Assembly (NCBI RefSeq): GCF_017348835.2
Contig: NZ_CP071375.1
Direction: 5' to 3' (one strand)
DNA from: Escherichia coli
Lineage (GTDB): Bacteria > Pseudomonadota > Gammaproteobacteria > Enterobacterales > Enterobacteriaceae
DNA length: 64,000 nucleotides
Shown: piece after piece, positions 32,801-38,800 of the stretch
Layout of the letters: each line of letters opens with the position of its first letter
Position numbering within the stretch: position 1 is the first letter of the stretch
Made by a program: the position numbers

Positions 32801-35800
32801 CGGTTCGGTCGGATCTTTAACGAAACGCGCCACGATGGCATTCGCGACAATCACCGCGCCGAACACCGGAACCTGTGTCCAGGCGAACTGCGAAGTTGTT
32901 AAGCCGCCCGCGTCGATCAGGATCACCGGCGAGACAGCCACCCAACTCATCATTGGGATATAGCTTAAAGAGATGGTTGCTGCGCCAAAGAGGAACAGCC
33001 GATTGCAAAAGACATTACGAAAATCGCGCAAGACGCTTTTGGCGCTAAATGGAACCGCGCCGCGCTTCACCGTCTCTGGCATCGCCAGCAGTAAGCCAAC
33101 AAATGAGATAAACCCCATAACCGCAATGATGGCAAAAAGGACTTTCCAGTGCACAAAGTGCATCAGAGCTGCGCCGGAAAGCGGGCCAATAATCGGCGCA
33201 ATCAGTACGATGGAGGTGATAATCGCCATCAACTTAATCCCTTTTGTCTGTCCGAACGCCTCCTGCACCGTGACATAACCAACGGTAGCAATAAAACAGA
33301 TACTGGTGCCCTGAATTGCACGCGCGATAAGAAACTGTGTCATAGACGTTGTGAACATTGTCGCAGCGCAGGCAAGGGTAAATATTAGCGCCCCGGTAAT
33401 CAGCACCGGCCTGCGGCCAATCCTGTCGGAAAGCGGCCCCAGCAGCCACTGTAACGCCATACCGCCCGCGAGATAGAGACTGACGGCAGCCGGAGCCAGA
33501 CTGACATCGGCATTAAAATCACGGACCACATTAATGATCCCCGGCTGGATCAGATCCGTCGAAAGATAGGCGGCAAAGTCATACAAAATCAACGCCATCG
33601 GGAAAAACAGCGTAGCGGCATGGCGGGCAAAAAAACGTGGCATAACAAACAACTCCTTGTCCGGAGAACCCCAACGGGGAAAACGAAATTCAATACCGTC
33701 GGTAATGACGAAAGGCAGGCGAGAAGGACAAATGTACTGAATTTCATGTAATCAACCACACTGCCTGTGAACACACAGACAGAGAAATACCTTCTGACTC
33801 CAGGTCAGAATGTATAACGATTACAAATAGTCATCAGCACATTACACCTCTTTAATTGATGGGTTGCATAGAAAATATACACCTTAAGTGTAATTAAAAT
33901 TTGCGGTTAATCAAAAGAGCGCGGTGGAAAGGGGAATATCTGCCGGGTACAGGAAATGTAAAACGCGAGCCTGTTTCCGGAAAAATGTATCGTTTGCAGA
34001 GGAACAAAAATAGCCTGGAAAGCACCTCGGGGAACGAGAAATTGCCGGGTGAGAATGGTTTTGTTAGTCGCTACAGTCGGGCCATCTTATCTACAGGTGA
34101 CGGATCGCCATGACAAACTTCACGACCAGCACGCCGCATGACGCATTATTTAAATCCTTTCTCATGCACCCTGACACCGCGCGGGATTTTATGGAGATCC
34201 ACTTACCTAAAGATTTACGTGAACAGTGCGATCTCGACAGTTTAAAACTGGAATCCGCCAGCTTTGTCGATGAAAAATTGCGGGCGCTACACTCCGATAT
34301 TCTGTGGTCGGTAAAGACCCGTGAAGGTGGTGGTTATATTTACGTAGTGATTGAACATCAGAGCCGTGAGGATATTCATATGGCCTTTCGCCTGATGCGA
34401 TATTCCATGGCGGTGATGCAGCGCCATATTGAGCATGATAAACGCCGGCCGCTACCGCTGGTCATCCCGATGCTGTTTTATCACGGTAGCCGTAGTCCTT
34501 ATCCCTGGTCCCTGTGCTGGCTGGACGAATTTGCCGACCCGACTACCGCACGGAAGCTTTATACCGCCGCGTTCCCGCTGGTGGATATCACTGTCGTGCC
34601 AGACGACGTGATTGTGCAGCATCGCAGAGTCGCCCTGTTGGAGTTGATCCAAAAGCATATTCGCCAGCGCGATCTGATGGAGCTTATCGATCAACTGGTA
34701 GTATTACTGGTTACAGAGTGTGCTAATGACAGCCAGATAACTGCGCTGTTAAATTACATTTTACTGACTGGCGATGAAGCGCGTTTTAAGGCGTTTATCA
34801 GCGAACTTACCAGGCGAATGCCACACCACAGGGAGCGAATAATGACAATTGCAGAGCGAATTCATAATGATGGATGGCTGTTGGGAAGGGAGAGGGGGAG
34901 GAAAGAAGGGAAAGTAGAAGGGGAACGGAGCCTCCTCCGATTGTTGTTGCAGAATGGGGCCGATCCTGAATGGATACAACGATATACCGGACTTTCGGCA
35001 GAGCAAATGCAGGCATTAGATCAGCCCTTGCCTGAAAGCAAGCGTGATCCATGGATCGAGTACTAATCAGAGACGGATGACAAACGCAAAGCAGCCTGAT
35101 GCGCTACACTTATCAAGTCTACATAACCCATTCAATATATTGAACTTTAAAGATTTTGTAGTCCTGGTAAGGCGTTCACATGGCATCCGGCATGAACGAA
35201 GCGCACTTTGCCTAAGCCATGCTGGAACGTGGCGATTACCCTGCAAAGATAAAACGAGTCACATGCTAGTCGTGAGAGAAAATCAGGGGCCTCGCCACTA
35301 ATTCGAATTCATTCCATTGCCCGATACACGGCCTCGCCAATTTGCTTCAGTGCTTCGCGATAGGTTTCGCTGAGCGGCAAAGCGCAGTTGATGCGCAGAC
35401 AATTACGGTATTTGCCGGAAGCCGAGAAAATCGAGCCTGCCGCCACCTGGATTTTCATGCGGTACAGCTGCCGCGCGACGCAGACCATATCGACCTGTTC
35501 AGGCAATTCGATCCACAGTAAAAATCCGCCTTTCGGGCGCGTAATACAGATTTCGCAGGGAAAATATTCCCGTATCCAGCAGGTATAAAGCGCCAGATTG
35601 CGCTGATAAGTCTGCCGCATCCGCCGGATATGGCGATGATAGTGACCTTCCAGCACAAACGTTGCCGCCGCCATTTGCGTGGACGGCACATTAAAGCTGC
35701 TGATGGCGTATTTCATATGCATCAGTTTATCGTGATAACGCCCCGGTGCGACCCAACCCACGCGCAGGCCTGGAGCAATACTTTTACTGAACGAGCTGCA

Positions 35801-38800
35801 CAACAACACTCGCCCGTCGATATCCCATGAATGGATGGTCCGCGGGCGCGGATACTCCGTTGCCAGTTCGCCGTAGACATCATCTTCAAAAATCACAATA
35901 TCATGACGCTGAGCGAGAGAGAGAGAACGGCCCGTTTGCGTGCGTCCGGCATAATAAATCCCAGCGGATTATTACAGTTTGGCACCAGAATGATGCCTTT
36001 AATCGGCCACTGTTCCAGCGCCAGTTCCAGCGCTTCAACGCTGATGCCAGTTTCTGGATCGGTTGGGATTTCAATCACTTTCACGCCCATACCGCGCAGC
36101 ATTTGCATCGAACCGTAATAACAGGGGGATTCGACCGCGACAATATCGCCCGGTTTACACACCGCCATTAACGCCAGCGACATCGAGTTATGGCAGCCGC
36201 TGGTGATAATGATGTCATCGGCGGTGACCACCGAGCCGCTGTCGAGCATCAGGCGGGCAATCTGCTCTCGCAATACCCGCTGACCGGCTAACAAGTCATA
36301 ACCGAGCACGGTTTGTAGATTATGCTGCACCACCCGGCTTAGCTCACGCCAGAGTGGTTTCAGGCTGGGCGTTTCGACATCCGGCGTGCTTTTGCTTAAC
36401 GGAACAATGGAACTGTCGCTATGCGCCTCCAGCATATCCAGCACCTGATCCCACTGGGTAATTTCCACCGGGCGCTGCACCGGACGCGTCATCGGCGGTA
36501 CAGGCGGCTGGGCTTTACGTTGTGCGACAAAATAACCCGAACGCGGCTGCGGAGTGATGAGCTTCATCGTCTCCAGCGTCTGGTACGCCTGCTGCACGGT
36601 GCTGATGCTGACGCCGTGCTCCTGACTTAAGCTGCGCACCGACAGCAATTTCTCCCCGTGACGATACAGCCCTTGCTCAATCCGCTCGGCAAGCAGAGTT
36701 GCCAGATGTTGATAACGCGTCATGCTGTATTCCTTATTTGGACCATACAGATAGAGAAACCGGTACAGATGAGGCTAAAAAACCGGATGCAGATGCTGTT
36801 TTAACCTGTCTGTATGTTAAATAAAACTAATATTTGCATCTGTATTGTGAACTGCCAGAAGGCGGATGATGAAGCCTCTGAAAGATGAGGAGGCAGCAGA
36901 TGGAATTTCACGAAAACAAAGCCAAAACGCCGTTTATCAGACTTGTGCAACTCTGGCAGGCGGTGAGGCGTTGGCGGCGGCAAATGCAGACCCGACGGGT
37001 GTTACAGCAGATGAGTGATGAGCGGCTGAGGGATATCGGGTTACGCAGGGAGGATGTGGAGTGAACTATGGGCGGCGTGTTGGCAAATGCTGCCTGTCTG
37101 CATTCAAAATTGCTACAAAATCCAACCATAAAAGTCGTTTACAACATATTTTTCTGATTTACATACAGATAATGACCTGAGCTGTCTCTCTGGGGGTCAT
37201 CATCTATGCGTCCGGGGGATCTGTCACAAAAAGGAATAGAACAAAATCATCAGCGGTGAATAAAGCGATTCGTTTTAGATCACATTAATGAAATTTTTGT
37301 ATCAAAAATTAGTTATCGCGCTCACAGTTCATAATGAAACAATTCTCTGCAAATAGATAACCGAAGCTTCGTTGCTAGTATCAATTCGCTAATTATACAC
37401 CTGCCAGAGGATACAATGAAAAATAGAAATCGTATGATCGTGAACTGTGTTACTGCTTCCCTGATGTATTATTGGAGCTTACCTGCACTGGCTGAGCAGT
37501 CGTCAAGTGAGATAAAGATTGTTCGCGATGAATACGGCATGCCGCATATTTATGCCAATGATACATGGCACCTATTTTATGGCTATGGCTATGTAGTAGC
37601 ACAAGATCGCCTTTTTCAGATGGAAATGGCACGTCGCAGTACTCAAGGGACTGTCGCGGAAGTGCTTGGCAAAGATTTTGTGAAATTTGATAAAGATATC
37701 CGTCGTAACTACTGGCCGGATGCTATCCGGGCGCAAATTGATGCCCTTTCCCCAGAGGATATGTCCATTCTGCAAGGCTACGCTGATGGAATGAATGCCT
37801 GGATTGATAAGGTAAATACCAATCCAGAGACGCTCTTACCAAAACAGTTTAATACATTTGGCTTTACTCCTAAGCGCTGGGAACCGTTTGATGTCGCGAT
37901 GATATTTGTGGGCACCATGGCAAACCGCTTCTCTGATAGCACTAGCGAAATTGATAATCTGGCACTGCTAACGGCTTTAAAAGATAAATATGGTGTATCA
38001 CAAGGCATGGCGGTATTTAATCAGTTGAAATGGCTGGTAAACCCATCAGCGCCAACCACTATTGCCGTACAAGAGAGTAGCTACCCACTTAAATTTAATC
38101 AGCAAAACTCGCAAACAGCAGCTCTGTTGCCACGCTACGATTTACCTGCACCAATGCTTGACCGACCAGCAAAAGGGGCGGATGGCGCACTGCTGGCGTT
38201 AACAGCAGGGAAGAACCGGGAAACTATTGCTGCACAATTTGCACAGGGTGGTGCCAATGGTCTGGCGGGGTATCCAACGACCAGCAATATGTGGGTGATC
38301 GGCAAAAGCAAAGCCCAGGATGCGAAAGCAATCATGGTAAATGGTCCGCAGTTTGGCTGGTATGCGCCTGCGTATACTTATGGTATTGGTCTGCACGGTG
38401 CTGGTTATGATGTCACTGGCAATACACCATTTGCCTATCCTGGGCTGGTTTTTGGTCATAATGGTGTGATTTCCTGGGGATCAACGGCAGGTTTCGGCGA
38501 TGATGTCGATATTTTTGCTGAACGGCTGTCGGCAGAGAAACCAGGCTACTACTTGCATAATGGTAAGTGGGTGAAAATGTTAAGCCGTGAGGAAACCATT
38601 ACGGTGAAAAATGGTCAGGCAGAGACCTTTACTGTCTGGCGTACGGTGCATGGCAACATTCTCCAAACTGACCAGACGACACAAACGGCTTACGCTAAAT
38701 CCCGCGCATGGGATGGTAAAGAGGTGGCGTCTTTGCTGGCCTGGACTCATCAGATGAAGGCCAAAAATTGGCAGGAGTGGACACAGCAGGCAGCGAAACA

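Follow-up and report, generated by a model that had tools for sequence, protein, structure and literature searches.

Frameshift of the MocR-type regulator gene yjiR at a (GA)6 repeat in a pig-associated Escherichia coli clone

Introduction

Regulators of the MocR/GabR subfamily, such as GabR of Bacillus subtilis (PDB entry 4n0b), PdxR and TauR, consist of a GntR-type helix-turn-helix (HTH), a linker and a fold-type I domain with the lysine of an SxSK motif. MocR regulators dimerise and sense their effector via this aminotransferase-like domain. The Escherichia coli gene yjiR encodes a protein that, when intact, shares all three parts, and the gene also resembles those of the subfamily in being divergent from a small neighbour gene, with repeated motifs in the intergenic region. 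Here we analyze yjiR in a stretch of 64,000 nucleotides of the E. coli contig NZ_CP071375.1 (assembly GCF_017348835.2), termed the window throughout. Unlike the genes of the described MocR/GabR regulators, yjiR is in the window a pseudogene truncated after residue 269, with the change of frame within a GA dinucleotide repeat.

YjiR is an uncharacterised transcription factor of the MocR family (PMC9308461; PMC6550539) and its identity to GabR is only ~24% (PMC6550539). The gene is induced in vivo in enterohaemorrhagic E. coli, and its deletion left colonisation of the mouse gut unchanged (PMC6550539).

Repeats inside genes give rise to two described situations with which this locus can be compared. 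The first is the frameshift pseudogene generated by slipped-strand mispairing at a short repeat, and yjiR is alike in that a one-unit expansion is found, the lesion is clonal, the gene is labeled 'frameshifted' by the NCBI Prokaryotic Genome Annotation Pipeline (PGAP), and it is a dispensable accessory gene; nothing essential differs, and the additional feature is that the same site has been mutated independently on several alleles. The second is the simple sequence repeat (SSR) contingency gene, as known from the homopolymeric and tetranucleotide tracts of Haemophilus, Neisseria and Campylobacter, with which yjiR shares a frame-toggling repeat inside the open reading frame (ORF). Unlike those genes, however, the yjiR tract is short, the population is nearly monomorphic at the ON length, and the OFF state is stable in the clone. 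The poly-G tract of the nearby gene pac (penicillin G acylase) fits this second family much better.

Results and Discussion

Frameshift in yjiR

The yjiR pseudogene occupies positions 35309..36723 on the minus strand, a span of 1415 nt that is no multiple of 3, whereas the intact gene has 1413 nt and encodes 470 aa. An earlier reading of the window (the original prediction) placed the switch of frame inside a GA repeat, and this was borne out: two minus-strand ORFs in different frames meet at GAGAGAGAGAGA, i.e., (GA)6, at positions 35915-35926. The context on the plus strand is C-(GA)6-ACGG, the tract reads (TC)6 on the coding minus strand, and it is the longest dinucleotide run of the window, the runner-up being 9 nt long. 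The N-terminal ORF (35893..36723, minus strand, ATG start) encodes 276 aa, which correspond to wild-type residues 1-269 followed by seven out-of-frame residues (SLSVMIL), and it ends with a TGA stop at 35893-35895. The out-of-frame C-terminal remnant (35309..35896, minus strand) is an ORF of 195 aa, and its GTG start overlaps the upstream TGA (GTGA). As predicted, when one GA unit was removed in silico a single ORF of 470 aa was restored, and its product was residue-for-residue identical to YjiR of F2_81, a pig strain from Australia that is the closest strain with an intact yjiR. Among in silico length variants of the tract, (GA)5 and (GA)8 were in frame, and (GA)3, (GA)4, (GA)6 and (GA)7 were out of frame.

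Pfam searches also upheld the proposed MocR-type identity. A GntR-type winged HTH (PF00392) was detected at aa 4-66 (36526..36714, minus strand), with E = 2.6e-13 in the N-terminal fragment and E = 5.8e-13 in the intact 470-aa YjiR of F2_81, and Aminotran_1_2 (PF00155) was found at aa 130-461 of the intact protein (E = 9.7e-39). Full-length YjiR aligned with B. subtilis GabR over residues 10-405 (E = 2.4e-20). Judged from sequence, the assignment of yjiR as a MocR/GabR-type gene, with a GntR HTH and a class I/II aminotransferase-like domain, is sound. In one respect the original prediction has to be corrected: it had the HTH part and the aminotransferase-like part in different frames, whereas the break lies within the aminotransferase-like domain. 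The frame is lost after wild-type residue 269, in the middle of this domain, so that the N-terminal fragment matches profile positions 25-173 of Aminotran_1_2 and the C-terminal fragment positions 182-361, and the domain fusion is broken in the window. The C-terminal remnant carries, downstream of the frameshift, the motifs FEDDVY (D280/Y283) and SFSK (K313), both of which align with the equivalent motifs of solved aminotransferases. The Lys313 codon lies at 35783..35785 on the minus strand, and its motif was aligned to the FSK motif of the aminotransferase 1x0m/3aov. We take D280/Y283 and K313 to be the Asp/Tyr that bind pyridoxal phosphate (PLP) and the Schiff-base lysine of fold-type I enzymes, respectively.

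Inheritance of the (GA)6 allele

The original prediction had left undecided whether the frameshift was a genuine mutation or an assembly error. A look-up of the exact 276-aa truncated product among public assemblies gave 19 contigs that encode it, and these include at least 10 per-run Logan assemblies (among them ERR3970200, SRR11658258, SRR17241680, SRR27418881, SRR22895632, SRR17729764, ERR14374684, SRR33453118 and ERR7450779) and one NCBI draft, GCA_019365765.1. All the loci that were fetched carried (GA)6, and most of them matched the window over 3-21 kb with few or no differences. Furthermore, strain PE164 (NZ_CP114128.1), which shares 99.994% identity with the whole 64-kb window (2 single-nucleotide polymorphisms (SNPs) and two 1-bp indels), has (GA)6, and PGAP labels the same yjiR span in its RefSeq record as a 'frameshifted' pseudogene. 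The presence of the same truncated allele in independent assemblies, in the draft and in PE164 effectively excludes an assembly error, so that of the two options the genuine mutation stands.

The same samples bear on the history of the allele. The samples of the clone are divided by a SNP at 39646 and by a pac deletion of 6 bp, and (GA)6 was kept in all of them; the (GA)6 allele thus arose once in the clone to which the window belongs and was then stably inherited through its diversification. F2_81 has (GA)5. Along the 64 kb, 8 SNPs and three indels separate it from the window, namely the GA indel and two of 1 bp, and within yjiR the 2-bp GA indel is the only difference between the two. Hence, the comparison with close relatives that the original prediction had called for gave an intact (GA)5 gene in F2_81 and a frameshifted (GA)6 gene in PE164, and slipped-strand expansion, which it had proposed, is the evident cause, one additional GA unit being the sole difference from F2_81 in this gene. 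The window has a 2-bp insertion relative to F2_81 and to more than 3500 genomes and has lost essential parts of a domain, as is the case for a frameshift pseudogene.

Because the window is 100% identical to GCA_019365765.1 and SRR17729764 over the stretches fetched (6.8-14 kb), it is a separate isolate of the PE164 clone. PE164 itself was recovered in Nanjing from a piglet with bloody diarrhoea and has been described as an O108:H9 hybrid of atypical enteropathogenic and extraintestinal pathogenic E. coli (PMC12233904). The idea that the window is an earlier, less polished assembly of PE164, which the four differences private to the window had suggested, was dropped after the identity with GCA_019365765.1 and SRR17729764 had been found.

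The sequence of events is as follows. Slippage during replication added one GA unit to the (GA)5 tract of yjiR, on the branch that followed the split from F2_81-like strains, and the mutation was inherited by the whole pig-associated clone, which takes in PE164, GCA_019365765.1 and about 10 sequencing runs. Translation runs out of frame after residue 269 and stops seven codons further on. The 276-aa product retains the HTH, the linker and roughly the N-terminal half of the aminotransferase-like domain, and would lack D280/Y283, the presumed PLP-binding K313 and the small domain at the C-terminus. Since half of the domain that dimerises and senses the effector is lost, the truncated YjiR is most probably inactive. 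It would no longer control the divergent yjiS promoter, its presumed target, or its own expression, and the lesion may persist because the gene is dispensable and accessory (3758 of the 5426 complete genomes have it).

Taken together, we consider it highly probable that the frameshift is a real, inherited loss-of-function mutation. Three points weigh against this interpretation. The evidence stems from assembled reads of the clone and not from the raw reads of the isolate that gave the window; the (GA)5 of F2_81 could in principle be a reversion and not the ancestral state; and the HTH-bearing 276-aa fragment, the inactivity of which is deduced from its domain content, could keep some DNA binding.

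Recurrence and stability of the repeat

The same tract has also been mutated outside the PE164 clone. In UTME-9, a pig strain from the USA, (GA)6 is present on a yjiR allele that is 21 SNPs away from that of the window, in a surrounding 12 kb that has diverged by 1.46%, and the closest alleles, which occur in many strains, differ from that of UTME-9 only in having (GA)5. The truncated protein of the UTME-9 type was found on 7 Logan contigs, and a third truncated (GA)6 protein allele on 21 contigs, with differing neighbours (hsdR/symE, GmrSD or pac). Among the loci fetched, (GA)6 occurred on at least nine yjiR nucleotide haplotypes, eight of which are 19-44 SNPs apart. The opposite change was also detected, with (GA)4 alleles whose truncated products (272 aa) are encoded by 40 contigs in one case and by 18 in the other, of NCBI, Logan and ENA origin. 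The occurrence of the same +GA and -GA events on other yjiR alleles makes the tract a weak recurrent slippage hotspot, in which both kinds of event have taken place independently on several alleles, and the pattern fits occasional slippage mutations that persist under weak selection on yjiR. The clusters of YjiR proteins hold many other truncated forms. The yjiR frameshift of PEC122 at first looked like a possible (GA)7; the strain has in fact (GA)5 and a separate TCCG tandem duplication about 20 bp from the tract (locus L006, 1560-1575), which is an independent frameshift.

A further reading of this recurrence is that the (GA)5 tract serves as a low-rate evolvability hotspot, at which lineages repeatedly shed YjiR and could regain it, the loss being favoured in certain niches, e.g., in pig-associated clones. 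It would account for the repeated appearance of alleles longer or shorter by one unit on many haplotypes, and for their persistence in clones; nevertheless, we regard it as unlikely.

The original prediction considered a genuine on/off mutation. If this is read as a switch, yjiR would be a phase-variable contingency locus, whose GA tract acts as a reversible ON/OFF switch of YjiR and is kept by selection. The position of the repeat inside an ORF whose frame is set by its length (in frame at five units and out of frame at four, six and seven), the rank of the tract as the longest dinucleotide run of the window, and the recurrence of alleles with one unit more or less on many haplotypes are what such a locus would display. 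A contingency locus is also expected to show a marked length polymorphism among and within closely related strains, and when repeat lengths were counted in the complete E. coli genomes of RefSeq, with short queries that differ only in repeat number and matched exactly including 40-bp flanks, the picture was different. (GA)5 was found in 1333 genomes, (GA)6 in 2 (PE164 and UTME-9), (GA)4 in 5, with 5 more that have one SNP in a flank, and (GA)7 in none. Off-length alleles hence account for ~0.5% of the exact-flank yjiR alleles, a pattern unlike that of a contingency locus.

A positive control for this census lies ~3 kb away. When the poly-G tract of pac was counted with the same method in complete E. 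coli genomes that carry pac and have identical flanks, G9, which is the in-frame length, was found in 305 genomes, G10 in 213 and G8 in 54, which is how a truly hypermutable tract looks in these data. Since variation was detected at pac, the data are able to reveal hypermutable tracts, and the yjiR GA tract is not one of them. Moreover, (GA)6 did not vary among the members of the clone that were sampled, while the pac tract flips between G9 and G10 there, and five repeat units are short for a bacterial contingency repeat. With 99.5% of the identical-flank genomes at (GA)5 and a (GA)6 allele that is stable across the clone, the on/off part of the original prediction was not sustained, and a selected switch at this tract is in our view quite improbable.

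The remaining technical explanation, that the true sequence is (GA)5 and yjiR is intact in the window, appears very improbable. Simple repeats are known trouble spots of long-read assemblies, an aberrant GA count coincides with an aberrant pac poly-G tract in the window, in UTME-9, in UID2404240044 and in MY203L1, and nine of the ten complete (GA)4 genomes stem from one project. On the other side stand the recovery of the truncated allele from the independent assemblies described above, and PE164, which has an in-frame G9 tract in pac and yet retains (GA)6. The (GA)4 fragments are likewise present on 58 contigs of Logan, ENA and NCBI assemblies, and the suspicion that the nine 'UID' genomes with (GA)4 reflect a systematic long-read error was weakened by these 272-aa fragments. 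The pac poly-G tract varies commonly (~47% of the uninterrupted tracts are off-length), so that its co-occurrence with an altered GA count is weak evidence; given this high base rate, the joint anomalies were uninformative as a mark of poor assemblies and were abandoned as such.

Finally, programmed recoding, by which a ribosomal +1/-2 frameshift or transcriptional slippage would yield full-length YjiR from (GA)6, is hardly credible: nothing specific speaks for it apart from the change of frame sitting on a repetitive CUCUCUCUCUCU stretch of the mRNA, the frameshifted configuration is not conserved (>99% of yjiR alleles have a single frame), no slippery or stimulatory element of a known type was seen, RefSeq treats yjiR of PE164 as a pseudogene, and to our knowledge slippage of the E. 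coli RNA polymerase concerns long homopolymers and not 12-nt dinucleotide runs.

The yjiR lesion, interpreted as a real and inherited mutation, is an ordinary frameshift pseudogene in a known regulator family, which RefSeq has already flagged in a nearly identical genome, and it does not represent a new kind of lesion; that it has recurred on many alleles is of minor interest for population genomics. In practice, the frameshift is a real marker of the clone and not an assembly error, and the pseudogene call that annotation pipelines make for yjiR is correct in this case. Across lineages, (GA)6 is unsuited as a phylogenetic marker because it is recurrent. Strains F2_81 and PE164 form a natural, nearly isogenic (GA)5/(GA)6 pair, and such pairs could serve to define the YjiR regulon. 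The more useful by-product is that the GA tract contrasts with the G9/G10 tract of pac, at a distance of 3 kb, the behaviour of which is that of a hypermutable ON/OFF site.

Neighbouring features

The gene yjiS (DUF1127; 36900..37064, plus strand), which is annotated in PE164 and F2_81, is divergent from yjiR and, by likeness to other MocR regulators, is most likely its direct target. Within the yjiR-yjiS intergenic region, four TRCAGAT motifs, three direct and one inverted, are located at 36746..36844, so that four of the 19 matches in the window fall within about 100 bp. This cluster is a plausible candidate for the YjiR operator. A scan of 35100-37100 for promoter and terminator consensus sequences gave no match.

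The genomes compared showed further differences that concern other genes. UTME-9 has an internal stop in mdtM (locus L005, 2537-3769). The window has a private A at 26233, where the others have C, at the position corresponding to kptA in PE164, and a private 1-bp deletion at 54450, in the counterpart of the hpaR-hpaG intergenic region. At both sites the window differs from PE164 and F2_81, which have the same sequence there; ERR3970200 and SRR22895632 cover only 26233 of the two, and they too side with PE164 and F2_81. The region between fimE and fimA, the site of the fim switch, holds another private SNP, at 8015. The gene fimA (window ~8243-8781, plus strand) is annotated as 'frameshifted' (539 nt) at the matching position of both PE164 and F2_81, and since this lesion is shared, it is older than that in yjiR.

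The gene pac lies downstream of yjiS at 37416-39957 on the plus strand. Its poly-G tract (39055-39064) is G10 in the window, so that the ORF ends at 39098 and encodes 560 aa instead of 846. The tract is G11 in UTME-9 and, judged by match length, in UTME-14, and in E. coli W it is interrupted (TGGGGTGGTGCA). A 6-bp in-frame deletion in pac (GCTATG, 37588-37593) is present in SRR11658258 and SRR22895632 and absent from the window, and within the (GA)6 clone the tract has flipped repeatedly between G9 and G10, both with and without this deletion. Our literature search found no paper that ties pac to a homopolymeric tract. The pac poly-G tract looks like a truly hypermutable ON/OFF homopolymer, and it is far more switch-like than the GA tract of yjiR. 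The segment downstream of yjiS (37416-40000 and its flanks), which we take to be the 'immigration control' hotspot of E. coli, is highly variable among strains: the window carries pac there, and other genomes with the same yjiR alleles (loci L016 and L019-L024) carry hsdR/symE or a GmrSD-type gene.

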